10,237 nt of DNA from a virus (taxonomy: Duplodnaviria; Heunggongvirae; Uroviricota; Caudoviricetes): positions 1-10,237 of the IMG/VR virus record IMGVR_UViG_2778261151_000009. The stretch is one strand, 5' to 3'. A model generated the notes under the pieces. It made no database searches, was not told the origin of the DNA, and saw only the letters and a program-made list of their open reading frames with translations. This document shows, in pieces, positions 1-10,237 of this stretch. The translations under genes and the position numbers were made by a program. Position 1 is the stretch's first letter; each line of letters starts with the position of its first letter.

Positions 1-296
1 CGCGTTGTTTCCGGTATATCGACTTTGATGTACGGGTTAATTTGTCTGGCGACAGTGGCAAGGTCTTTATTCAGGAGGGCTTTGCATTCTGCTTCGGTAT
101 ACGTTTTACCGAGCATGATGTCTTTTCCGGTGTGTCCGTGGCATACAGTCCATACGCCAACGATATCTTTGTATGGTATGTAGCTGACACCTTCCAGACC
201 ATCGTTACCACCTGGGCCAGTGATGAGCACAGACGCTATGGCAATAGCCCCACCACCAATAGCAACTGCAACAGCCTTGCGTAATGATGGCGACAT
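1..296 (-). CDS. R: SAR endolysin (phage 21 R-like lysozyme), N-terminal ~98 codons only; gene continues beyond window start
   Basis: Absent from ORF track because truncated by the window edge. Minus-strand ATG at 296-294 overlaps the holin stop (TAATG). Own translation: [98 protein letters not shown]. It has a Gly/Ala-rich weakly hydrophobic N-terminal helix (signal-anchor-release type) followed by a lysozyme-like E-x8-D-x5-T motif, and sits directly downstream of the holin. Confidence 0.85.
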
Positions 297-511
297 TATT
301 CACCTCTCGCAGCCTTACGCTTGTCTTCTCTGATTTTGAAGTACAGATTTGTCAGATAAGTCAGGAAGCCCAGAACCAGACTCCCCAGTACACCAATCGC
401 AGCCCACTGTGACGGACTGACCTGATCAAGCCACTGTAAAAACCAGTAGCCAGCACTGCCTGCGGAGGTGCCGTAGGCAATGCCCGTTGAAATTTTGTCC
501 ATGGATTTCAT
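296..511 (-). CDS. S: Class II holin / pinholin, phage 21 S-like (71 aa) with dual-start motif M1-K-S-M4
   Basis: ORF track 296..511. Protein [71 protein letters not shown] has two TM segments and a charged C-terminus. Strong SD (GGAGGTGAGG) upstream; stop overlaps endolysin start. Confidence 0.9.
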
Positions 512-803
512 AGCCTCACCTCCGCAAATAACGGATGGCGTAGTTTTACACTGAGAAATGAAAGGGATTTGAAAAGAAAAAACCGCAAAAGCGGGCGAAA
601 CGATATATACAGTAAGGAAAGCACTCTATCCAACAAACCACTCACAGTTAATCGGAATAAAAGCAGAGTGCTTATGAATGATCGCCTGCCCGAAGGTTAG
701 TATTTCTGCACAGCAATTTTGCAAAAAAAAGCGATCATTCATAACTTAAACGTCTTTCAGTCACTCCGGGATTTCCCATCATCGCAGACTGAAAGACTCT
801 AAC

Positions 804-878
<75 letters not shown>

Positions 879-881
879 ATA

Positions 882-957
<76 letters not shown>

Positions 958-959
958 AC

Positions 960-1036
960 TGGACCGCCACCGGGGACTCGAACCTCGCACACTCAACTTA
1001 AAGGGTTGACGCTCTTTCCTGATGAGCTAGTGGCGG
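960..1036 (-). tRNA. tRNA-like gene, Lys-type anticodon UUU but atypical anticodon loop (C at position 33)
   Basis: Reverse complement CCGCCACTAGCTCATCAGGAAAGAGCGTCAACCCTTTAAGTTGAGTGTGCGAGGTTCGAGTCCCCGGTGGCGGTCCA. Perfect 7-bp acceptor stem, 4-bp D stem, 5-bp anticodon stem (TCAAC/GTTGA), loop CCTTTAA, T-loop TTCGAGT, encoded CCA. Isotype uncertain. Confidence 0.55.
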
Positions 1037-1040
1037 TTGG

Positions 1041-1113
1041 TGGCCCTTGCTGGATTTGAACCAGCGACCTGGCGATTATGAGTCGCTCGCTCTCACCACT
1101 GAGCTAAAGGGCC
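1041..1113 (-). tRNA. tRNA with CAU anticodon; resembles tRNA-Ile2 (lysidine type) more than elongator tRNA-Met
   Basis: Reverse complement GGCCCTTTAGCTCAGTGGTGAGAGCGAGCGACTCATAATCGCCAGGTCGCTGGTTCAAATCCAGCAAGGGCCACCA; anticodon loop CUCAUAA. From memory the body resembles E. coli ileX-type tRNA. Confidence 0.75.
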
Positions 1114-1215
1114 GGGCGCAGGATAATAACGTTACGAAATCAATGTTGCAAGCATTCAAAAATCACCCTTATCTCCTCCACCAGCGCATTCACCATGTCT
1201 ATCCGAGATAAGTGG

Positions 1216-1244
1216 CACAAAAAACCCGCTTGTGGGCGGGTTTT
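1216..1244 (-). terminator. tR'-like intrinsic terminator downstream of the late promoter
   Basis: Hairpin ACCCGC-ttgtgg-GCGGGT (1224-1241) with A-run on plus side (U-run in minus-strand RNA) and T-run on the other side, so potentially bidirectional. About 45-70 nt downstream of the candidate pR'. Confidence 0.6.
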
Positions 1245-1289
1245 GTTTGCTTTTGCCATCACGTAAAAAATCGGCAAAATATCAGATTT

Positions 1290-1322
1290 GCATGAATATA
1301 TGCCTTTCAATCTACTTTTGCA
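1290..1322 (-). promoter_or_regulatory. Candidate late promoter pR' (-35 TTGCAA, ~16-17 bp spacer, -10 TATATT) overlapping the Q-like gene end
   Basis: Minus-strand reading ttgcaaaagtagattgaaaggcaTATATTcatg. Position between the Q-like gene and the terminator/tRNA/lysis block matches lambdoid late-region architecture. Confidence 0.45.
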
Positions 1323-1995
1323 ACACTTTGCTTTGAAAATGCCGTCTTTTTTTTGAACGTGTTCTCATTACAAACAATAAAGCCTCACTATCCAGTCGGT
1401 GAAAAATGTGTTTCATTGCAACCCAGTGACGAGTAAATGTTTTGGACCAGTTTTTAGTTGTCACTCCCGCCAGTAATGCCAGCTCCTGGTATTCATAACC
1501 TTCCCCACCAAAAAGTTCTGCTTTTACTGCCTGCGCCGCCAGCCAGATTAATTTTTTCAGGCGTTCCTGCGTTTTCCCTGCAATTTTTCTGGTACCGGAT
1601 TGAGCATTAAATTCATTCCACGCCCACTGTGTTATCGCGATCTGATATTCCCAACAAATACTCCCGCTGTAACACCACAACAACCAGGCTTTATGATGTT
1701 CTTCAAGAGACAGAACAGCCCGCCGCCACGATGATGTCGAAAACTCAACCGGACTGACCAGAGGAATTGACGTCCCCTTCGCCAGCGATTGCTTTCCCGG
1801 GATTGGTGGATTATCCCGCGTTATCATTTTTCCAGTCACTTCATCGCGGTACCGGATTTTTTTACGCCTGTAACGCCCTGTATCGAACATGGCATTCTCT
1901 TGCCAGGCTTCAAGCTGACCTTTTGTTGCCCCACTCAAATCAGCGGTGGCGATAATGAGCTGCTCACGCACAAACTGTAAATACTGGTTATTCAT
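1312..1995 (-). CDS. Putative late-gene antiterminator Q-like protein (227 aa from ATG at 1995; family assignment by position)
   Basis: ORF track 1312..2001 (its first codon is GTG). ATG at 1995-1993 overlaps the rusA stop as ATGA. Located immediately upstream of the pR'-like promoter, tR' hairpin, tRNAs and the S/R cassette, downstream of rusA. No motif verified by search. Confidence 0.55.
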   Translation of the reverse strand: MNNQYLQFVREQLIIATADLSGATKGQLEAWQENAMFDTGRYRRKKIRYRDEVTGKMITRDNPPIPGKQSLAKGTSIPLVSPVEFSTSSWRRAVLSLEEHHKAWLLWCYSGSICWEYQIAITQWAWNEFNAQSGTRKIAGKTQERLKKLIWLAAQAVKAELFGGEGYEYQELALLAGVTTKNWSKTFTRHWVAMKHIFHRLDSEALLFVMRTRSKKRRHFQSKVLQK

Positions 1996-2351
1996 GCGCA
2001 CCCCAGTTCTGTGATTTTTATCCCCAGCCGCCCACCAGGAACGAGCTGACCGCGCACAATATTGATTTCATCAAACTGCTCGTCGTCTATAAGTAGTCCA
2101 GCATGCGTCAGCGCATCCAGCGGTGCCTTCAGGATATTGTCCAGGTCACGACGGCGCTTATCCGGTGGCTCTGCAATAATCTTTATCGCCAGCCTTCCGG
2201 ACAGGTTTAATTTCAGTCGCTGCTGGCGAACAATTAGCGCCACATCACGGCGATAACGCTCACCGGCTTTTGATACAGTCGCCAGTAGGTGTTCACCGTT
2301 GGCGGGTAAGGCAAAACAAATTCTATGCGTTCGGTCATTTATGCTTTCCAC
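1992..2351 (-). CDS. rusA: Holliday-junction resolvase RusA; N-terminal region apparently frameshifted (possible pseudogene or sequencing error)
   Basis: ORF track protein contains PDKRRRDLDNILKAPLDALTHAGLLIDDEQ and GGRLGIKITELG, matching the RusA catalytic core. The canonical N-terminal motif (MTERIEFVLPYPPTVNTYWR) is in another frame, starting at ATG 2338-2336 right after the upstream stop. Confidence 0.8.
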   Translation of the reverse strand: MESINDRTHRICFALPANGEHLLATVSKAGERYRRDVALIVRQQRLKLNLSGRLAIKIIAEPPDKRRRDLDNILKAPLDALTHAGLLIDDEQFDEINIVRGQLVPGGRLGIKITELGCA

Positions 2352-3397
2352 TTCAGAACACCCGAATTTCTCGCGTGCATTAAAAAACGAATCAGCAACA
2401 ACAACTGACTACCGTGTTTTTCTTCAAAATCTTTTACCCCGGCGTGTAGTTCGTTATGGCATTTACGACACAGCGGAATAACAAACAAATCGTCAGCCTT
2501 TGTTCCCATCCCTCCCAGTCCATGACCAATGATGTGGTGCGGATCATCTGCCTGATTGCCACACGTCATGCATTTCTGCGTTTTTACCCAGCGCGTGTAT
2601 ACAGGCATCTCTTCCCGTTGTGGTTTCTGGCGCTGGAGATACTGAGCCGGAGATTCCGGATCAACGGCAATGCTGACCACCGTCTCTTCCTGTGGTGGAT
2701 TCTGTTGCTGGTGGGCGTGAGGCAGCGGCGCAAGATTTTTTGTGCGCTGCTTCAGTATGCTGGTGGCGGTCTGCTCTCCCGGCACGATGTCGCTTTCACG
2801 GTACATTGAGCGGATTTTTTCCGCACGCAACCCCAGCGAACGACGTAATACCGCTTCCGGTAGCGCGTCCGCCACCTGATTGCGGACCGCCCACCAGGAT
2901 AATTCAGCCAGAGATAATTCACGCTCCTGCGTACCGCTTATTGCGTGACCGATGACGTCAATCATCCATGCTGACAGGTTTTGATGAGCAAGTTGCTCGA
3001 GTGATTCGGATGTCTGGTCACGCAACTGGTTGTCGCAGTGCCAGCACAACACCATTGCGCCGGTACCATAACGGTGAATGACGGTTTCGCTGTGATGATA
3101 ATCGCCGTGTGGCCACTGGCAGGATTTAATATGGCGCAACAGCCAGTCAGACAATGCACCAGCACCACCAGCAGCACGAATCACCCGTGCGTTACTGAAA
3201 AACGGCAGCAATGTTTTGTCTTCCACTAGCGGCTGGCGAACGGCAGGAACGACCCCGGACGGCAGATTACGCATGCTTTTCGGTTCCGGCTCCACCAGTA
3301 CCCGGGTATTGTGGAATACCGGCATGGATTCACGGCCTGGCTTAAGGACCACCAGCCCGAGTTCCGGAACCAGAACAGGTCGAAGTAATACCCGCAC
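2339..3397 (-). CDS. DUF968 / YdfU-like prophage protein with C-terminal HNH-like zinc-binding motif
   Basis: ORF track 352 aa; first codon is GTG overlapping the upstream stop. C-terminus CMTCGNQADDPHHIIGHGLGGMGTKADDLFVIPLCRKCHNELH = CxxC...HH...CxxCH...H. Position between a Rem-like gene and rusA matches Qin-type prophages. Confidence 0.7.
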   Translation of the reverse strand: MRVLLRPVLVPELGLVVLKPGRESMPVFHNTRVLVEPEPKSMRNLPSGVVPAVRQPLVEDKTLLPFFSNARVIRAAGGAGALSDWLLRHIKSCQWPHGDYHHSETVIHRYGTGAMVLCWHCDNQLRDQTSESLEQLAHQNLSAWMIDVIGHAISGTQERELSLAELSWWAVRNQVADALPEAVLRRSLGLRAEKIRSMYRESDIVPGEQTATSILKQRTKNLAPLPHAHQQQNPPQEETVVSIAVDPESPAQYLQRQKPQREEMPVYTRWVKTQKCMTCGNQADDPHHIIGHGLGGMGTKADDLFVIPLCRKCHNELHAGVKDFEEKHGSQLLLLIRFLMHARNSGVLKWKA

Positions 3398-3398
3398 A

Positions 3399-3677
3399 TT
3401 ACCTCCAGATCCGTTGCTGGAACGTGCAGGACGGACGCGGTGGCCGTTCGGAATAAGGGAGCCTGACGAAGATTATCCAGTGACGATAATCGAGACTGAG
3501 GGCTTTCTTAATCTCGTATCCGTGTCTGCGGTAGCGCTGAATCAGCCATTCAGCCTGTTCTTCGGTGCAGGGGTCGTGCTGATACCAGTCAGATTTGAAT
3601 GCATGAGAACGCCGCCCGTGCCTGCTGGCAGGGGCGGCAGAGTTATCCGAATTGTAAAATTTGGTATCGTGCGCCAT
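3399..3677 (-). CDS. Small conserved prophage protein (Rem-like position), ~92 aa from internal ATG
   Basis: ORF track gives 3399..3806, but codons 1-43 are translated through the hok terminator hairpin and U-tract (3745-3776). ATG at 3677-3675 is the first start downstream of that terminator. Start and identity uncertain. Confidence 0.45.
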   Translation of the reverse strand: MAHDTKFYNSDNSAAPASRHGRRSHAFKSDWYQHDPCTEEQAEWLIQRYRRHGYEIKKALSLDYRHWIIFVRLPYSERPPRPSCTFQQRIWR

Positions 3678-3744
3678 CTGTTTTCTCTGCTGGCGCAGCA
3701 GGTGCCAGTTGTTCAGGCTGACGGATGGATTGTAAACCAGAACG

Positions 3745-3776
3745 ACCAGAAAAAACAAAACCCGCCGAAGCGGGTT
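3745..3776 (-). terminator. Intrinsic terminator ending the hok transcript
   Basis: 7-bp stem AACCCGC / GCGGGTT (3759-3776) with CGAA tetraloop, followed on the minus strand by UUUGUUUUUUCU. Not U-rich on the plus side, so unidirectional. Confidence 0.6.
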
Positions 3777-3844
3777 AAGTGCGGGTGCGTTGAGGATGCC
3801 TGACACATCAGCGGTGGCGAGGGATTTCTCCCCCGCCGGGTCTC

Positions 3845-4000
3845 TTACTCCTCAGGTTCGTAAGCTGTGAAGACAGCGACCTCCGTCTGGCCGGTTCGGA
3901 TTCGTACCTCGCAGAGGTCTTTCCTCGTTACCAGTGCCGTCACTATGACGGTTAAACAGATGACGATAAGGGCGATTAACATCGCCTTTTGCTGCTTCAT
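3845..4000 (-). CDS. hok: Hok/Gef family type I toxin (51 aa)
   Basis: MKQQKAMLIALIVICLTVIVTALVTRKDLCEVRIRTGQTEVAVFTAYEPEE is a single TM helix plus the conserved Hok periplasmic tail. ORF track extends it in frame to an upstream ATG at 4057. Flanked by promoter, terminator and 5'/3' complementary elements. Confidence 0.9.
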   Translation of the reverse strand: MKQQKAMLIALIVICLTVIVTALVTRKDLCEVRIRTGQTEVAVFTAYEPEE

Positions 4001-4176
4001 AGCCTGCTTCTCCTTGCCTTTCGGCACGTAAGAGGCTAACCTACATGTGTTCAGCATGGATTGAGCCTCAGATTAATGTTAAGCGTCTTGCAGGACGCGT
4101 AATGTTAACTGGGGCTTTTCTCTATCTGCCTTTTGGTGTTCATGCCTGAGACAGATAGCCTCAAGCACCCGCAGTC

Positions 4177-4204
4177 ATTCTACTTAACTAAGATTTCCCT
4201 GCAA
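4177..4204 (-). promoter_or_regulatory. Candidate hok promoter (-35 TTGCAG, 16-bp spacer, -10 TAGAAT)
   Basis: Minus-strand reading tTTGCAGggaaatcttagttaagTAGAATgactgcGGGTGC. Predicted start falls right at the 5' element (4158-4172) that is complementary to the 3' end of the transcript. Confidence 0.4.
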
Positions 4205-4259
4205 ACCGTTTTTGTCCGGCACAGTAAATATCCAACTAAACCAATAGCGTTCGCTGTAT

Positions 4260-4439
4260 TTACCGCCAGTATTCAATGCACATGACCGCCATGAACACCC
4301 CTAAAAAAAGGGCATTTATATGTCCAAACATTAATATCAAAACATCAATTTTTTCCATATACCTTGCTGTGAAGATGATGGGCATACATGATGCGAACAA
4401 CCAGAACGCAACAAACAAAAACTGCAATGCGTTTTTCAT
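4260..4439 (-). CDS. Small hydrophobic membrane protein, possibly a lipoprotein (59 aa from ATG with strong SD)
   Basis: ORF track 4260..4478; Met14 (ATG 4439-4437) is preceded by AGGGGGAATA. Protein MKNALQFLFVAFWLFASCMPIIFTARYMEKIDVLILMFGHINALFLGVFMAVMCIEYWR has a signal-like N-terminus ending in a lipobox-like FASC and a second hydrophobic helix. Lies in an AT-rich island. Confidence 0.5.
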   Translation of the reverse strand: MKNALQFLFVAFWLFASCMPIIFTARYMEKIDVLILMFGHINALFLGVFMAVMCIEYWR

Positions 4440-4651
4440 TATTCCCCCTACAATCAATGTGCAATAACATTTAAACACACCTCAATTTGGCCGGACATAT
4501 AAATATCTAAACCAGAAAAAATCACTTACATAGCGTTACAAACTCTTTAGTCTAAATACTCATCGTAAAACATTCCCCATACTTATCAGTCCGTTCCGCG
4601 CCAGGTAGCTTATTGCCTTATCTGGCAACCTATAATCAGGTTTCCGCTTTT

Positions 4652-5074
4652 TCAGTTGGCTGGTCGTTTAACCGACATAGTTAACCCATTAATCTGGTTG
4701 CCGGATGCTGGTGGATTTTCGCGTTTTAGTTGTTCATAAAAGTGCACAGCTTTAACCAGTTCTTCTGATGTAACCGGGACTGGTGGGGCAGTGAATAAGG
4801 CCTGAATTTCATAGTTCGGCCTGTCGTTACAATCCTCTTTTTTCGGTACATATTTCCAGTCACCAACCCACAACTCCCCCTGAGAGTCCATAACACCTTT
4901 TTTCACGTAGCGATATCGCCACGCTATCGGCTCTGCTTCCAGCGATGCCCGTGCAATTTTGAATAACTCGCCCTCTACTCGCGCCATCCCTGAATTGGGG
5001 TGGCATTTCGTAATCGCTATTTTTAATTTGGCTTCTTCGATTAATTGTTCTTTTGTTAATTCAGTCATTTTCAT
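4652..5074 (-). CDS. Hypothetical phage protein (140 aa)
   Basis: ORF track; ATG start with second Met at codon 3. Upstream has AGGAGG followed by a CCGCC-TGAAAG-GGCGG hairpin. No family recognised. Confidence 0.6.
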   Translation of the reverse strand: MKMTELTKEQLIEEAKLKIAITKCHPNSGMARVEGELFKIARASLEAEPIAWRYRYVKKGVMDSQGELWVGDWKYVPKKEDCNDRPNYEIQALFTAPPVPVTSEELVKAVHFYEQLKRENPPASGNQINGLTMSVKRPAN

Positions 5075-5164
5075 TACCGCCCTTTCAGGCGGCCTCCTGA
5101 TGTTCTGAGGGTGCAGAAATCCCTCCGGTTAAGGATTAAATTTTATTTGCTGTGCTAAATTTAA

Positions 5165-5620
5165 TTATTCAGTTTTTATTCCTGCTCTCAAAACAGCCTC
5201 TGCCATTCTGATATCCGGATTTTCTGAAATCATCTTTTCCGGCGAGTCGCAATCACCACCACATTCAGTTATGCGTTCATGACCAAAACGAATTGTGGTT
5301 TTGTGCGCATTAATCATTTGTGTAAGCGCATCTGTCAATTCTGCAATGCGTTTGTCTTTAACTTCCAGCTCTTTCAGTAAAGCCAGTACGTCAGGATCGC
5401 TAACATCAACGACGGTTACGCGCGATTTCAGGTAATGCTCATCCGCAAAAGTTCGACCAGTTTTAAAATATCCATCATCCCCCTCACCTGTGCAGGCATA
5501 CACAATATGCGTTCTGGAAAATATGCGCTGTATCGACATTTCATCGCCACAAACAGGACATTCCGGCACCTGAATTGGTGAATAACGTTCACGTAATGCC
5601 TGGTAATTAGTCTTGCACAC
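5165..5620 (-). CDS. Hypothetical protein with zinc-ribbon-like Cys motifs and a coiled-coil segment (151 aa)
   Basis: ORF track; GTG start preceded by TTTTCAGGAGA. CPVCG...C and ECGGDCD motifs; LKELEVKDKRIAELTDALTQM heptad-like stretch. Overlaps the upstream gene by 14 nt. Confidence 0.6.
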   Translation of the reverse strand: MCKTNYQALRERYSPIQVPECPVCGDEMSIQRIFSRTHIVYACTGEGDDGYFKTGRTFADEHYLKSRVTVVDVSDPDVLALLKELEVKDKRIAELTDALTQMINAHKTTIRFGHERITECGGDCDSPEKMISENPDIRMAEAVLRAGIKTE

Positions 5621-5912
5621 TGGCTGTCTCCTGAAAAATCACCGCATGCCCCAGTTTCTCCGCCAGCGCCAGTTCTGCCTTAGCGCCTGCTGACCGCTGC
5701 CAGCCTTTCAGCATGTAAATCGCATCCACACAACGAATCATCGCCATGCAGATATCCATGTACTGCGGCTGTGTCAGCCCGTCCGGAAGTACTGCCGGGT
5801 TTAAGACGGTATGCCCTTCCCGTTTCAGTTCCTCTTCCGCATTGTGAAACGCCTCACGGTTGAAATTTTTATACCCGGTCATTGGACCGGCGATATAGAC
5901 TCTCACCCTCAC
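5607..5912 (-). CDS. DUF4406-like protein (nucleoside 2-deoxyribosyltransferase-like fold family), 101 aa
   Basis: N-terminus RVYIAGPMTGYKNFNREAFHNAEEELKREGHTVLNPA matches the characteristic YIAGPMTG...NF...F...G..V.NP signature. GTG start overlaps the upstream stop (GTGA); SD AGGAGG 7 nt upstream. Confidence 0.7.
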   Translation of the reverse strand: MRVRVYIAGPMTGYKNFNREAFHNAEEELKREGHTVLNPAVLPDGLTQPQYMDICMAMIRCVDAIYMLKGWQRSAGAKAELALAEKLGHAVIFQETASVQD

Positions 5913-6331
5913 GCCATCACCTCCTGAAAATTACCCTGATAAAACGACAATATGCGCTGCATAACTTCGCTCTTCCGGCACTCGCGACAGATTATGTTTA
6001 GGCGACTGTCGTAGCGACGTATTTCTCCGTCAGGTAATGACCAGATAAGGTCCGGATCAACCGCAGATGGTTTCTTCAGCTTTGCCCTTGAGAGCTTTTT
6101 ACGAGCATTTTGCCAGTCCTTACGCGCCTGTTCAGACGGGAATAACCCGTAACCAGAGTTGTATACATCGCCACTGGCAACCAGCTCTCTGGCCAGAATG
6201 CTCATCAGATATCTTGTTGCCCCAGTTTTAGCTTCCAGTTGTCGTAACGTCTCGCGCCCACTCTGGCGTACGAGTTCAAGAACCTGCCCTTTAATTTTTT
6301 CCCGCTCTTCTTGTGTAAAAACTTTTGCCAC
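5909..6331 (-). CDS. Hypothetical protein (140 aa), possible winged-helix N-terminus
   Basis: ORF track; GTG start with SD AGGAGGG 4 nt upstream. No Walker A motif, so not an obvious DnaC-like loader. Confidence 0.6.
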   Translation of the reverse strand: MAKVFTQEEREKIKGQVLELVRQSGRETLRQLEAKTGATRYLMSILARELVASGDVYNSGYGLFPSEQARKDWQNARKKLSRAKLKKPSAVDPDLIWSLPDGEIRRYDSRLNIICRECRKSEVMQRILSFYQGNFQEVMA

Positions 6332-6371
6332 AAGCCCTCCTGAAAATTACCTCATGACCAGAAATTAACAC

Positions 6372-7442
6372 TTACCCCCTGAAGCCCGGCGGAATTTCGT
6401 TATCCGGTTCAGAAATATGATTCACACAACGCTGGTTGTTCGTGCCGCTTACCGGGAGCAACCAGGGGTTCTCAAAATTCCGGTCCGGTCCAAAAAACGT
6501 CGTCGCTCGCTGAACAAATTCCGTTCCCGTTTTCCCGGTAGCCGCCAGGTATCTTGCGTAACGCCTCACGCCATCCAGCATGGCCTCTGGTGGCACCCCC
6601 TCGCGTAATCTGGCCTTCCAGGCACTGAAAGCGGATTTCTTCGGGTTTGCCCCGGCACGCAACGGGTACTCCCGCCAGACCTGTTCGAACACATCCGGAT
6701 AATCCACTCGTCCCACAGACTGCCCGGTGTTTTCCGGGACTACCCGATCGGCTTCCCGCTGAATGGCGGAATCGGCTTCAGGCTGCTGCAGTTGGTGTGA
6801 TTGCTCCGGACTTGCGGTCATCACCTGCTGCACAGCGCCCGAATCGGCTTTCAGCGCATACGCTGAATCGGCTTCCGGTGTCGTGCCTGCTGGCTGACCA
6901 GGATTGACGGTCTGAACATCCCCTGCCTGGTTCGTGGCGTTTTTTACGCCATGGACCATAGTGTTTTGATCTTCTTGATCTGTATCTTTATCTGTATCTT
7001 TATCTGTCGTGACTCGTCGTGACATGTGCGTGACATATCGTGACGCGCCGTGACAATCGCCATTTTGTTCCCGCTTTCTTTCCCTCTCTCGCTGCGCCCT
7101 CTTGCGCTCTGCAGGAGATTTTGCGGTTTGCGAAATATTGCCGTTGTCCTCTTTCAGCACCTGGCGTTTTTCCCATCCAGTGATTAAATCACCATCAAGT
7201 ACCCGCCCCTGCATCGTCTGCAAAATTGAATCAATTACCTCTTCTGTCACGTCGAGCGCACTTGCCAAATCTTCTGTCGTGACATCAATGTGACCTCGCG
7301 TGACATTTCGTGACGCGCTCACCAGGAGGTGGATATACACTGCCATCACTGTTGCAATTGGCTGCCCTGACACCCTGGCAATTGTTCGCCACTTAGGGTC
7401 ATTTGGCATGTCATGCCATAATCTGAGCCAGGCGTTAGCCAT
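6372..7442 (-). CDS. Putative replication initiator (O-like: N-terminal HTH, low-complexity linker, C-terminal domain) with iteron clusters inside the coding sequence
   Basis: ORF track 6372..7448 (GTG); ATG at 7442-7440 has SD AAGAGGTGA. Position after Cro-like and YdaT-like genes. Acidic repeat linker TTDKDTDKDTDQEDQ; basic stretch KRAQRERERKRE. Two clusters of CGTGAC direct repeats at helical-turn spacing inside the gene. Confidence 0.65.
   Translation of the reverse strand: MANAWLRLWHDMPNDPKWRTIARVSGQPIATVMAVYIHLLVSASRNVTRGHIDVTTEDLASALDVTEEVIDSILQTMQGRVLDGDLITGWEKRQVLKEDNGNISQTAKSPAERKRAQRERERKREQNGDCHGASRYVTHMSRRVTTDKDTDKDTDQEDQNTMVHGVKNATNQAGDVQTVNPGQPAGTTPEADSAYALKADSGAVQQVMTASPEQSHQLQQPEADSAIQREADRVVPENTGQSVGRVDYPDVFEQVWREYPLRAGANPKKSAFSAWKARLREGVPPEAMLDGVRRYARYLAATGKTGTEFVQRATTFFGPDRNFENPWLLPVSGTNNQRCVNHISEPDNEIPPGFRG
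7008..7054. repeat. Iteron-like cluster 1: five direct CGTGAC repeats at 10-11 bp spacing
   Basis: Copies start at 7008, 7018, 7029, 7039 and 7049, immediately preceded by a tandem 12-bp repeat ATCTGTATCTTT x2.5 (6978-7013). Confidence 0.6.
7246..7314. repeat. Iteron-like cluster 2: CGTGAC at 7278, 7299, 7309, variant TGTGAC at 7289, inverted copy GTCACG at 7246
   Basis: Same hexamer and 10-11 bp phasing as cluster 1, about 225 bp away, within the N-terminal coding part of the initiator gene. Confidence 0.55.
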
Positions 7443-7513
7443 ACTCACCTCTTTTGATACCGAATCTTTTTACTCACAAATTGCCGGAAGTGATCCGGTA
7501 TGAATATTGCGAG

Positions 7514-7939
7514 TCAATGCACAGCCACAATATTTCCTGCAGGGCCACCACGATTCATCTGGTTGAAACCAGCGATCGCCACTGCGACAAAATCATCAGC
7601 GTCTCTCACCAGTCGTTCCCGCGTCTCCACTAGTTCCCGAAAATAGGCTGAGCTATGGCTGCGCATTCGGGCCACCAGCAGAGGTGGCATTGCTTTTTCG
7701 ATAGCTGGTAACAACGCCTGAATTTTTTTAAGCGCATCAGGGGGGTCTTTCTCCACCCAGCGGAAAATTTTCTGAGTATTGCGAGCCAGGGCTTCCGGAT
7801 GGCTGTCGTCATACAGTTCCGGGAACGTCATTCCCAGCTCGAAATACGCTTTGGTAATTTTCGCAGCCGGTACTTTTTCGCCGTCCGGATGCGCCCAGGC
7901 ATTCATCGCCATGCGGATGTGTTCATGCTTGATTTTCAT
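7514..7939 (-). CDS. YdaT-like protein (position equivalent to CII in lambdoid early operons), 141 aa
   Basis: ORF track; ATG overlaps Cro-like stop as ATGA. Sits immediately downstream of the Cro-like gene. Family name from memory of Rac/CP-933P YdaT, not verified. Confidence 0.5.
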   Translation of the reverse strand: MKIKHEHIRMAMNAWAHPDGEKVPAAKITKAYFELGMTFPELYDDSHPEALARNTQKIFRWVEKDPPDALKKIQALLPAIEKAMPPLLVARMRSHSSAYFRELVETRERLVRDADDFVAVAIAGFNQMNRGGPAGNIVAVH

Positions 7940-8190
7940 GAATCAACTCCCATCAGCTTTTTCGTAGTAGTTTTATTCCTGCCAATAGTTAAAATTGCAT
8001 CGGCAGAAAATAATCCGTTTGATGCAAGAGCGATTTTTTCAGCGTAATTTGTTTCGCCGGTATATTCTGTGCGAGGCAATTTTCCGTTATCCATCCATTT
8101 ATAGATTGCTCTTTGGCTGACACCACAAACGTCGGCCACAACAGCAACGCGAACAGTTTTGATTACATCTTCAAGTGTTTTCTGGTTCAT
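7936..8190 (-). CDS. Cro-like HTH DNA-binding protein (84 aa from ATG 8190)
   Basis: ORF track 7936..8262, but the ATG at 8190-8188 has SD GAGGGTG 6 nt upstream. HTH signature VVADVCGVSQRAIYKWMDNGKLP. Divergent from the repressor gene. Confidence 0.7.
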   Translation of the reverse strand: MNQKTLEDVIKTVRVAVVADVCGVSQRAIYKWMDNGKLPRTEYTGETNYAEKIALASNGLFSADAILTIGRNKTTTKKLMGVDS

Positions 8191-8269
8191 ATCACCCTCA
8201 CAATGTGAACTTTGAGTACATGCTATAACAGAACTGACAGTACATTCAAGAGCGAATATCATTGAACTT
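8191..8269. promoter_or_regulatory. Divergent promoter/operator region between the Cro-like and repressor genes
   Basis: Repressor-side promoter: -35 CTGACA (8234-8239), 17-bp spacer, -10 TATCAT (8257-8262). Cro-side: -35 TTGAAT (plus 8244-8249), -10 TATAGC (plus 8222-8227). Two AACnnnnAGTACAT motifs at 8208-8221 and 8232-8245. Confidence 0.55.
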
Positions 8270-8689
8270 ATGGTTCATGAAGATAAAGCGCGTAAAGAGT
8301 TCGCCAGTAGGCTTGCGCTAGCCTGTGAAAACGCTGGTTATGAACAACATGGAAGGCAGGCAGAAATTGCCCGTCGAATGAAATTAACACCAAAAGCGGT
8401 TAGCAAATGGTTTAATGGCGAAACAATTCCTCGCCGGGAGAAATTAAGGGAATTAGCAACACTAATAGGAACAACACCAACCTATCTTTTGGGAGAGGAT
8501 ACAGAAGAAAGTGGACAGGTACGTTTCTATCAGGAGTTAAATCCAAGACAAAAAATCATCATTGACCTTCTGGACGAGCTCCCTGACAGTGAGACAGATG
8601 AACTTTTAAAAACTCTTGAAGAGAAAAAACAGAAGTACAATGCAATTTACGAAGAGTTAGCACGAAAGAAAAAACAAAAAGCCTCTTAA
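8270..8689 (+). CDS. CI/DicA-like XRE-family repressor lacking a peptidase domain (139 aa)
   Basis: ORF track; HTH GRQAEIARRMKLTPKAVSKWFNGETIP; C-terminal acidic/coiled segment. Divergent from Cro-like gene. No SD, with -10 placed about 7 nt before the ATG, suggesting a leaderless mRNA. Confidence 0.8.
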   Translation: MVHEDKARKEFASRLALACENAGYEQHGRQAEIARRMKLTPKAVSKWFNGETIPRREKLRELATLIGTTPTYLLGEDTEESGQVRFYQELNPRQKIIIDLLDELPDSETDELLKTLEEKKQKYNAIYEELARKKKQKAS

Positions 8690-8759
8690 ACCAGCATAAA
8701 TCCGGTAGCGCCTTCCTCCGGGTTTGTGCTTCACTTTATCCCATCTCATTTTTTTACAC

Positions 8760-8810
8760 ACAAAATGTACTATAAGTACTTTACAACAATGAACGCAAAG
8801 TACATTATAT
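8760..8810 (+). promoter_or_regulatory. Operator/promoter region upstream of the ydfA-like operon
   Basis: Near-palindrome ATGTACT-ATA-AGTACTT (8764-8780) and AACgcaaAGTACAT (8791-8804) overlap a candidate promoter (-35 TTTACA 8779-8784, -10 CATTAT about 8802-8807). Confidence 0.45.
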
Positions 8811-8986
8811 ACCTGCCACCCACCCCGCCCCACAGAATGCAGGGCAATACTTCGAGTTACCAGGCAGTGGTCAGGGGTTAAGTAGCCAGCCCGAGGCGTA
8901 AGAACATGACGGCAGGGTTCAACTTTAATAACTATGCAGCAGGTTTTTGTTCCGCTACCCCGGCGTTAAGGGGAAATGAGGTCAGC

Positions 8987-9142
8987 ATGGATACTATCGA
9001 TCTTGGCAACAACGAATCTCTGGTGTACGGCGTGTTTCCCAACCAGGACGGCACCTTCACCGCAATGACGTATACCAAAAGCAAAACGTTTAAAACCGAA
9101 TCTGGAGCGCGTCGCTGGCTGGAAAGAAATTCAGGTGGGTGA
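8987..9142 (+). CDS. ydfA: YdfA-like small protein (51 aa)
   Basis: Internal ATG of ORF track 8906..9142 with SD GAGGT 4 nt upstream. Protein MDTIDLGNNESLVYGVFPNQDGTFTAMTYTKSKTFKTESGARRWLERNSGG. Size and position after the DicA-like repressor match Qin ydfA (from memory). Confidence 0.6.
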   Translation: MDTIDLGNNESLVYGVFPNQDGTFTAMTYTKSKTFKTESGARRWLERNSGG

Positions 9143-9143
9143 T

Positions 9144-9272
9144 ATGGATTTCGACACAATCATGGAAAAGGCTTACGAAGAATACTTCGAAGGCCTTGCC
9201 GAAGGCGAAGAAGCTCTCAGCTTCAGCGAATTTAAACAGGCGCTTTCCAGTTCGGCAAAATCTAACGGCTGA
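9144..9272 (+). CDS. ydfB: YdfB-like small protein (42 aa)
   Basis: Not in ORF track (too short). ATG 9144 with SD AGGTGGG; own translation MDFDTIMEKAYEEYFEGLAEGEEALSFSEFKQALSSSAKSNG. Start 1 nt after the ydfA-like stop. Confidence 0.6.
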   Translation: MDFDTIMEKAYEEYFEGLAEGEEALSFSEFKQALSSSAKSNG

Positions 9273-9300
9273 TAAGCGAAACAGCACGCGAGGAATCAGT

Positions 9301-9411
9301 ATGCAGAAACGAGAACCCGTCATCATCGCGCCAGACTATACCGATGATGAACTTTATGAGTGGATTTTGGCGGCATCAGTTTCATTGCTGGCTGATGTCC
9401 GCCCTTTTTAA
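9301..9411 (+). CDS. YdfC-like short ORF (36 aa), uncertain; its 3' end is the DicF-like hairpin
   Basis: ATG 9301 with SD GAGGAA; own translation MQKREPVIIAPDYTDDELYEWILAASVSLLADVRPF. The coding sequence runs through the terminator hairpin, so it may be truncated or partly non-coding. Confidence 0.35.
   Translation: MQKREPVIIAPDYTDDELYEWILAASVSLLADVRPF
9357..9409 (+). ncRNA. dicF: DicF-like sRNA (processed 3' end of the ydfABC transcript) with intrinsic terminator
   Basis: GGCGGCATCAG...CTGATGTCCGCC hairpin (9369-9403) followed by TTTTT. Sequence and position after ydfC resemble E. coli DicF (from memory); 5' end not determinable here. Confidence 0.55.
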
Positions 9412-9591
9412 AGTGAATTTTGTGATGCGGTGAATGCGGCTCAGCGCACGCGGAACAGTTAAAACAGTAAGGAAAATCCCTTATTCCGGCGTTAATTATT
9501 AACTGGTTAACGTCACCTGGAGGCACCAGGCACCGCATCAACAAAGTTCACTTCGGTGATGAAAGGTAAGAGAAAATGTTGAATGTAGCTA

Positions 9592-9703
9592 TTGAAAACC
9601 AGAACGGGTGGAATTATAGTGCACCTGCACCTCATAAAACGGGTGCCGGGCGTGGAAACCCGAAATCATTCACGGCGCATAACCGCGCTCAGGCGGTTTT
9701 TTT
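9592..9703 (+). promoter_or_regulatory. Promoter-terminator unit: -35 TTGAAA (9592-9597), 17 bp, -10 TATAGT (9615-9620); terminator hairpin ACCGC-gctcag-GCGGT plus T7 (9682-9703)
   Basis: Near-consensus sigma70 elements followed about 60-75 nt later by a stem-loop and seven T. Could be a small RNA or an attenuating leader for the Rha-family gene. Confidence 0.4.
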
Positions 9704-9872
9704 ATGCGTTAAGCACAGCCACATTCGCATTATGGTGGGGCGTGCAGGGCAACCGCAAGGCTGGCCGGGTTCCGTGATGACCGGTATTTCCACCCCTGTA
9801 CGTCTCACCACCCTTATGGTCGTGGAAAACCTCGGTGGTGAGTTAATCAAATTCATCGCGGAGGCTGCCATC

Positions 9873-10237
9873 ATGGCTACTATCCTTACCCTTTCTCACC
9901 CTGACGTAACCATCGAAAATGGTCGCGCTGTCACTACGTCTGTTGCGATCGCCGAGTTCTTTGGCAAACGCCACGAACGAGTGTTGGATAAAATTCGCAA
10001 TCTGGACTGTTCAGCAAAATTCACTGAGCACAATTTTGTGTCGAGCGAATACACCGACTCAACCGGGCGCAAACTCCCAATGTACCAAATCACCAAAAAC
10101 GGCTTCGTTTTCCTGGTGATGGGCTTCACGGGCAAAAAAGCCGCCGCATTCAAAGAGGCATACATTGCTGAGTTCGACCGCATGGAGGCCGAACTGCGCC
10201 AGAATAACACCCCACCTGCTGACAAGATGATTCCGGG
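9873..10237 (+). CDS. rha: Rha-family phage regulatory protein, N-terminal part; gene continues beyond window end
   Basis: Absent from ORF track (no stop in window). ATG 9873 with SD GGAGG 8 nt upstream. Own translation MATILTLSHPDVTIENGRAVTTSVAIAEFFGKRHERVLDKIRNLDCSAKFTEHNFVSSEYTDSTGRKLPMYQITKNGFVFLVMGFTGKKAAAFKEAYIAEFDRMEAELRQ matches the pRha domain signature. Confidence 0.75.
   Translation, partial: MATILTLSHPDVTIENGRAVTTSVAIAEFFGKRHERVLDKIRNLDCSAKFTEHNFVSSEYTDSTGRKLPMYQITKNGFVFLVMGFTGKKAAAFKEAYIAEFDRMEAELRQNNTPPADKMIP

Follow-up and report, generated by a model that had tools for sequence, protein, structure and literature searches.

Two phased hexamer arrays inside an initiator gene as a probable replication origin of a lambdoid Escherichia coli prophage

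The 10,237-nucleotide stretch of DNA analyzed here, called the window (IMG/VR record IMGVR_UViG_2778261151_000009, positions 1 to 10,237), is the early region of a Qin/Rac-like lambdoid Escherichia coli prophage, and its replication initiator gene contains two arrays of the hexamer CGTGAC, which reads GTCACG on the gene strand. Sequence comparison indicates that the two arrays are very probably the iterons of a prophage replication origin lying within the initiator gene, whose product would recognize them. An earlier reading of the bare sequence, hereafter the original prediction, had proposed a lambda-like origin inside the initiator gene at 7008-7314. That proposal is now supported by selection on the hexamers at the DNA level, by array positions conserved across phyla, and by coordinated switching of hexamer type, and further by an AT-rich run kept against genomic GC content and by a predicted DnaD-like winged-helix N-terminal domain (N-domain) in the encoded protein. 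Just beyond the interval originally named are the likely unwinding element (about 6960-7007) and a palindrome (6928-6958). The features on which the argument rests are these:

6372 to 7442, minus strand: replication initiator gene, 356 residues; ATG at 7442 after AGAGGTGA, stop codon at 6372-6374
7278 to 7314, minus strand: N-domain iteron array, four units at 10-11 bp, in the codons for residues 43-56, SRNVTRGHIDVT
7246 to 7251, plus strand: single inverted iteron copy, encoding D64-V65-T66, the start of a putative recognition helix
7008 to 7054, minus strand: linker iteron array, five GTCACG units at 10-11 bp, encoding CHGASRYVTHMSRRVT with units in all three reading frames
6960 to 7007, no strand: AT-rich run, proposed DNA unwinding element, directly after the linker array, encoding DKDTDKDTDQED
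6928 to 6958, no strand: inverted repeat beyond the AT-rich run, 13-nt arms and 5-nt loop, free energy (dG) -8.7 kcal/mol, z -2.2

Exact copies of CGTGAC on the plus strand begin at 7008, 7018, 7029, 7039, and 7049 in the linker group, with spacings of 10, 11, 10, and 10 bp, and at 7278, 7299, and 7309 in the N-domain group, where the one-mismatch unit TGTGAC at 7289 completes a series spaced by 11, 10, and 10 bp. On the gene strand the N-domain units read GTCACG, and the unit at 7289 reads GTCACA. This layout is a direct observation. The position scan confirms the nine copies (one as TGTGAC) in two groups with 10-11 bp phasing, and the inverted copy at 7246-7251, all as originally described; the TGTGAC unit lies at 7289 rather than at the implied 7288. 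The further claim that all copies share one face of the helix stands within each group but is not established across the two, since the gap between them, 229 bp or about 21.8 turns, varies among homologs. Units counted as direct repeats are spaced by 10 bp in 76 cases and by 11 bp in 22, and positions flanking the 6-bp core stay below 0.9 bit.

Such clustering is far beyond chance, as the original prediction had argued. Eight same-strand copies of CGTGAC occur within 307 nt, where 0.05-0.07 would be expected (Poisson P for at least eight, 5e-16 to 1e-14), while the rest of the window has the hexamer only once on the plus strand and twice on the minus strand. First-order Markov simulation of the window, repeated 200 times, gave no hexamer other than simple ones with more than five copies per 307-nt span; the same scan of the real sequence, with starts every 50 nt, counted seven of the true eight. 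A genome-wide count was made on Tritos, a complete phage genome of 46.4 kb that is 98.7% identical to the window over the initiator gene. Nine of its 25 CGTGAC copies, both strands taken together, fall inside the homologous 307 bp, and the remaining 16 are scattered singly, with 18.5 expected over the whole genome and no second cluster. The local enrichment therefore holds, and the hexamer is not equally frequent elsewhere.

The core GTCACG may be read as GTC ACG (encoding VT), as TCA CGx (SR), or as xGT CAC Gxx (xHx), and because units are spaced by 10-11 bp, successive units fall in all three reading frames. The repeat thus belongs to the DNA and not to the protein. For comparison we assembled 57 loci encoding homologs of the N-domain, drawn from one-genome-per-species contigs, and a codon alignment of 22 sequences, namely the window and 21 loci with locus GC of 34-69%. 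Iteron codons are fixed in this alignment: V47 is GTC, T48 is ACG, G50 is GGT, and V54 is GTC in 22 of 22 sequences each, S141 is TCA in 22 of 22, S44 is TCA in 21 of 22, and V65 is GTG in 19 of 19. Synonymous-site entropy of the iteron codons is mostly 0 (range 0-1.0 bit), as against 1.1-2.3 bits for 33 other conserved codons of 4-6-fold degeneracy, with no overlap between the sets (Mann-Whitney U = 0, P 1.9e-7). Iteron codons are frozen while other conserved codons vary, which is direct evidence that purifying selection acts on the hexamers as DNA.

These data also dispose of the idea that the repeat is a by-product of a recurring peptide motif or of codon or composition bias. The VT, SR, and H motifs do recur, and they are invariant in the alignment. 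However, the units occupy three reading frames at 10-11 bp spacing, the synonymous positions are frozen although other conserved residues use all of their codons, and, in loci without the inverted copy, the residues corresponding to D64-V65-T66 vary. The inverted copy itself occurs at the same offset (191) in 13 loci of the GTCACG type. A protein-repeat explanation was rejected on the reading-frame and codon evidence, and we regard its likelihood as negligible.

The same architecture extends well beyond E. coli. In 24 of the 57 loci, with locus GC of 34-69%, GTCACG occurs at the same gene offsets, 128/138/148/159 and about 388-430, and within each 5.4-kb locus the two arrays hold nearly all GTCACG copies. 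These loci come from Shigella, Escherichia albertii, Serratia, Rahnella, Pseudomonas, Bordetella, Acidovorax, Chromobacterium, Pseudothauera, and Entomomonas, among others. More distant homologs have other hexamers at the same two places: GTAACG in six loci, CGAACG(C) in fifteen, and GTGACG in one. Both arrays of a given gene share one hexamer type, and types switch together, a co-variation seen directly across the family. In homologs the equivalent linker array comprises from one to seven units. L053 has its N-domain array displaced, and three low-GC loci keep just two degenerate units, located beside the AT-rich run. In-frame insertions change the number of units: in L004, from E. albertii, 21-bp (7-residue) insertions in the N-domain loop add two units, and in the E. 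coli linker a 7-residue, 21-bp insertion corresponds to two additional units.

Two variants of the arrangement were seen in passing. In L046 and L056 (Serratia/Pantoea, gene offset about 300-420), the same N-domain is fused to a different C-terminal part, and CTACGTAGTA-like repeats replace the usual linker array and DK run. In L004, L008, and L044 (E. albertii, Serratia, and Sphingomonas), the AT-rich run is immediately followed by a common motif, AAAACCCCACACA(T)AACGCGCACGTGCGCGAG, coding for KTPHNAHVRE and holding a CGCGCAC/GTGCGCG palindrome; their iteron hexamers differ, that of L044 being GTAACG.

What binds the arrays is suggested by what accompanies them. The gene that contains the arrays is their only constant partner, and this constant partnership is the main argument, an indirect one drawn from sequence, that the encoded initiator is their binder. 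A different factor, whether a host protein, a repressor, a partition protein, or a terminase, might instead bind the hexamers, making them a centromere, a pac site, or a site of host-factor recruitment. The flanking gene family found most often in GTCACG-type loci is indeed repressor-like (cI-like, 15 of 23 loci), Cro-like genes occur in 11 of the 23, and binding by the initiator is itself deduced. Yet no flanking family is common to all 23 loci, and no partition or terminase genes occur near the arrays in the window neighborhood. Hexamer type, moreover, changes along with initiator subfamilies across phyla, and a conserved host factor would leave four different hexamers unexplained. We judge binding by some other factor, for another process, to be very improbable.

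Immediately after the linker array the sequence reads AGATAAAGATACAGATAAAGATACAGATCAAGAAGATC, with three 12-bp repeats at 6973-7008, and the 50 nt past the last iteron have 28% GC, as against 54% for the gene. In most related loci, whatever the hexamer type, the linker array is succeeded by a run of GATAAA or GATACA, and this AT-rich run stays at 24-46% GC even within genes of up to 68% GC. Codon choice in high-GC loci is telling: the ratio of GAT to GAC is 70:8 in the run and 181:277 in the rest of the same genes (Fisher P 1.5e-17), and that of AAA to AAG is 57:29 in the run and 124:203 in the rest (P 3e-6). This bias toward GAT and AAA shows that AT-richness is itself under selection, as expected of an unwinding element. 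GC-rich inverted repeats were found beyond the AT-rich run in many homologs, on inspection by eye, and a palindrome nearly identical to that of the window is present in phage 75/02 Stx, whose N-domain is unrelated. A scan for DnaA boxes found no concentration at the origin, with only one-mismatch hits at 7167 and 7217. As a separate observation, the palindrome together with a T-rich stretch (6928-6968, plus strand) scores as intrinsic-terminator-like, for transcripts antisense to the initiator gene.

Association with the AT-rich run bears on a second alternative, in which the arrays are not a replication start but operator or roadblock sites, by which, for example, the initiator would regulate its own expression or rightward early transcription would be controlled. 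Plasmid iteron arrays also serve autoregulation and handcuffing. One of the two arrays here lies within the coding region of the DNA-binding domain, well away from the AT-rich run; units reading GTGACA are similar to a -35 hexamer, and a single weak promoter-like match overlaps an array. Against this, PHROG classes the gene as a replication initiator, and a scan for promoters and terminators found sites no more numerous than in shuffled sequences. The linker array always adjoins a run whose AT-richness is maintained in spite of genomic GC, as is characteristic of an unwinding element. A regulatory role for the N-domain array, besides, fits within the origin model and is not an alternative to it. 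A purely regulatory function is therefore improbable.

Phage 75/02 Stx provides what looks like, from its sequence, a parallel two-array origin, a case that lends support to the initiator as the binder. The C-terminal half of its initiator is 65% identical to that of the window and the phage has the same palindrome and a simple repeat, while the N-domain of its initiator is unrelated. Only four exact copies of AAGGGGCT are present, as 2+2 arrays at equivalent places: a direct pair adjoins the simple repeat, and within the sequence coding for the N-domain, at a distance of about 250 bp, is an inverted pair. The pairs lie at 3626-3652 and 3880-3905 of L002, each with 11-bp spacing.

The initiator open reading frame is intact in the window. 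Its product matches PHROG 3729, "replication initiation protein", from end to end (E 3e-256), and matches "replisome organizer" families of PHROG weakly (E 1.8e-5 and 4.5e-4); homologs start MAN.WLRLWHDMPNDPKW, and relatives are annotated as "phage replisome organizer", "replication protein O", or "hypothetical protein". A Pfam scan of the initiator at E <= 0.1 found no family, with just two unrelated sub-threshold hits, and Pfam and NCBIfam scans assigned no family to the N-domain, the sole match being the DnaT-like tail. Sequence search of PDB found no hit to the N-domain. A PDB search with profile A1 returned a DnaT match only, which came through the C-terminal domains of other alignment members and was rejected. 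The protein divides as follows:

7167 to 7442, minus strand: coding region of the N-terminal winged-helix domain, residues 1-92, from confident AlphaFold models
7053 to 7115, minus strand: coding region of a basic helix, residues 110-130, AERKRAQRERERKRE, between the wing and the linker array in AlphaFold2 (AF2) models
6375 to 6695, minus strand: coding region of the C-terminal helical domain (residues 250-317) and DnaT-like tail (residues 333-356), from PHROG and NCBIfam

In the AlphaFold model, the N-domain has helices at residues 2-14, 16-25, 29-45, then a loop, helices at 56-63 and 67-77, and a beta hairpin. Fold comparison places the model closest to two winged-helix domains, the DnaD N-terminal domain and the N-domain of pSK41 Rep. 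The codons of the N-domain array specify the last part of helix 29-45 and the loop after it, where the predicted local distance difference test score (pLDDT) dips; the linker array falls in sequence modeled as disordered, part of a long region spanning residues 131-249 or so. The AlphaFold models thus agree with the original assignment of one cluster to the linker and the other to the coding region of the N-terminal domain. The basic helix may contribute to DNA contact. The C-terminal part matches PHROG 1701, "DnaD-like helicase loader" (E 8.5e-63), and the tail (window 6375-6446, ..ISEPDNEIPPGFRG) has its match at the very C-terminal end of E. coli DnaT (NCBIfam NF002770, E 7e-4). This DnaT-like tail is present again in homologs whose middle regions are otherwise different, and may be a docking peptide for the host replisome. 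Many family members carry instead a DnaT-like C-terminal domain that binds single-stranded DNA; the C-terminal domain of DnaT forms filaments on single-stranded DNA at helicase-loading sites (PMC13377028).

A mechanism for the proposed origin can be outlined, in which binding, melting, and helicase recruitment are modeled on lambda O, SPP1 G38P, and pSK41 Rep. Monomers of the winged-helix N-terminal domain would bind each GTCACG core. With cores every 10-11 bp, bound proteins would align along one helix face, where they might oligomerize and distort the DNA. The strand-asymmetric, GATAAA-type run that abuts the linker array would then melt, with the palindrome lying beyond it. The C-terminal domain and the DnaT-like tail might engage single-stranded DNA, recruit host DnaB/DnaC, or both. 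The N-domain array, about 230 bp upstream, would most likely enlarge or loop the complex or feed back on transcription through the gene, and could also be a transcriptional roadblock.

Several findings weigh against this interpretation. The origin model does not account for the role of the N-domain array, and one homolog, L039, with seven units in its linker, lacks an N-domain array. The initiator of the window comes without a helicase loader gene, so that helicase recruitment is conjecture. L049 and L050 have no evident iterons. Residues that determine hexamer specificity were sought and not identified, since types largely follow clades: the basic-helix variants ERKRxQRE, ERAKAWRE, RVKAFRE, and ERTRAYRE track hexamer types, but track clades too, and a within-clade switch of hexamer (L026 compared with L023 and L027) revealed no clear determinant residue. 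No paper in the searchable literature was found to describe this family, its origin, or GTCACG iterons in phages.

An origin of this type might also be present and yet inactive, in a prophage that is possibly defective. The window may be chromosomal prophage: its 551-bp array-bearing segment (6900-7450) is found in 2210 of 5426 complete E. coli genomes (about 41%), with as many as four sites in a single genome, and many prophages of this sort are cryptic. The missing loader gene points the same way. On the other hand, the initiator reading frame is undamaged, and the phage collection has seven records 98-99% identical over the gene, among which Tritos, the complete one that was checked, has all units intact. 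Inactivity has, in our estimate, a small chance of being the correct explanation. The family as a whole ranges over prophages of many Proteobacteria, Acidobacteria, and one metagenome-assembled genome of a Planctomycete. A search of the plasmid collection for mini-replicons run by the initiator gene found none that was convincing; matches were to large plasmids, mislabeled chromosomes, and two records of about 51 kb resembling circular phage genomes.

An iteron origin inside the initiator gene, beside an unwinding element, is a classical design. Lambda O binds its iterons as dimers, and ori-lambda has a palindrome beyond its AT-rich tract. Origins inside the initiator gene have been proven experimentally for ori-lambda in O (PMC7466680), for oriL of SPP1 in gene 38 (PMC5737612), and for the Rep boxes of pSK41 in rep (PMC5703833). 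As in the window, the iterons of ori-lambda lie in mid-gene, in the part that encodes the inter-domain linker, with an AT-rich tract adjoining (PMC7466680), and the gene has the same place in the lambdoid early operon, after cro and cII-like genes. Iteron number likewise changes by in-frame insertion in Shiga toxin (Stx) phages, 13 additional residues in Stx O being equal to two iterons (PMC7466680), where 7 residues equal two units here. Unlike lambda, whose iterons are 19-bp imperfect inverted repeats (PMC7466680), the prophage has 6-bp direct cores, one per helical turn, and a second array inside the coding region of the DNA-binding domain. It also lacks a P- or DnaC-type loader gene immediately downstream, and its initiator has no detectable sequence relation to O and does not match Pfam Phage_rep_O. 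Pfam lends no support to the "protein O" labels of relatives in GenBank, which seem to have been given on the basis of gene position.

Likeness to Rep of pSK41, from the staphylococcal RepA_N plasmids, lies in the DnaD-like winged-helix fold of the N-domain, as modeled for the prophage protein. That protein has no Pfam match to RepA_N or DnaD, belongs to a phage and not a plasmid, and comes from a family of Proteobacteria and beyond; there are two arrays rather than one, and the C-terminal domains differ, being a DnaT-like tail or DnaT-like domain in the prophage family. SPP1 G38P resembles the prophage system in having its origin in the initiator gene, with repeated boxes bound by the initiator and an adjoining AT-rich unwinding element (PMC5737612), and also in name, NCBI calling the prophage initiator family "phage replisome organizer". 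Comparison of profile A2 with G38P by hhalign, however, gave a probability of 0.2, that is, no similarity, and the prophage initiator has no Pfam hit to Phage_rep_org_N. SPP1 further differs in encoding a loader and a helicase of its own (genes 39 and 40) and in having a distant second region bound by G38P (oriR), whereas Tritos has no second cluster.

Iteron plasmids (P1, F) and the origins of Staphylococcus aureus pathogenicity islands (SaPI) have two arrays of one short repeat near the initiator gene, which invite models of looping or handcuffing. The prophage shares the two separate arrays of the same short repeat near an initiator gene. It differs in that both arrays are inside coding sequence, about 230 bp apart, in that the AT-rich element is outside the array pair and not between its members, and in that the module belongs to a lytic or temperate phage and not to a copy-controlled plasmid. 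By sequence, then, the initiator is outside the lambda O, RepA_N, and G38P families, and by its modeled fold it joins the DnaD-like winged-helix initiators. Its distinctive traits are 6-bp cores at one per helical turn, a second array in the coding region of the DNA-binding domain, and the existence of four hexamer types.

A more ambitious reading, which we put forward tentatively and consider rather unlikely as a whole, is that of a self-referential origin-initiator unit, in which a loop of the DNA-binding domain and the linker are written in iteron DNA. Arrays in such a unit may grow and shrink in 21-bp steps (seven codons, two helical turns), iteron specificity (GTCACG, GTAACG, CGAACG, or GTGACG) may co-evolve with the protein in cis, and the second array could be an element of looping, handcuffing, or transcription-coupled control. 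If this is true, replication interference (incompatibility) would be possible between co-resident prophages that share a hexamer type; with up to four copies of the segment per E. coli genome, prophages with identical iterons might interfere or cross-talk.

The origin assignment gives a concrete candidate to a module that occurs in about 41% of complete E. coli genomes and that current annotation describes just as "replisome organizer" or "hypothetical". The family offers a clean natural experiment on overlapping constraints, coding and protein binding on the same bases, and with four hexamer types at fixed positions it also suits the study of initiator-iteron co-evolution. Uses could include prediction of prophage origins and replication compatibility, synonymous knock-outs of origins, and mini-replicons of narrow specificity. 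The general picture of how phage origins are constructed is unchanged, and the result should be unsurprising in principle to a specialist.

Neighboring genes in the window are those of a lambdoid immunity and early region, and include the following upstream of the initiator:

8270 to 8689, plus strand: cI-like repressor
7936 to 8262, minus strand: Cro-like helix-turn-helix gene
7514 to 7939, minus strand: YdaT-like gene, between the Cro-like gene and the initiator

After the initiator come, in order, DUF977, DUF4406, Ead/Ea22, a hok/sok locus, DUF968, antiterminator Q, and four tRNAs. The interval directly downstream (5165-6331) has no P-, DnaC-, or DnaB-type gene, the next genes being the DUF977, DUF4406, and Ead/Ea22 genes, and the Tritos annotation likewise has no loader or helicase gene. 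A DnaC gene lies directly downstream of the homolog in 75/02 Stx, and Pseudomonas relatives have a DnaB-like helicase gene there.

Several RNA genes were also recognized. A sok antitoxin RNA (Rfam, 118.9 bits) at 3995-4170 on the minus strand is part of the hok/sok-type toxin-antitoxin locus, and the corresponding site in Tritos carries a HokD annotation. On the cI side of the immunity region, at 9627-9815 on the plus strand, isrK (Rfam, 67.7 bits) is followed directly by the C4 antisense RNA (76.3 bits). Four tandem tRNA genes occupy 807-1113 on the minus strand, downstream of the antiterminator Q gene (1312-2001).

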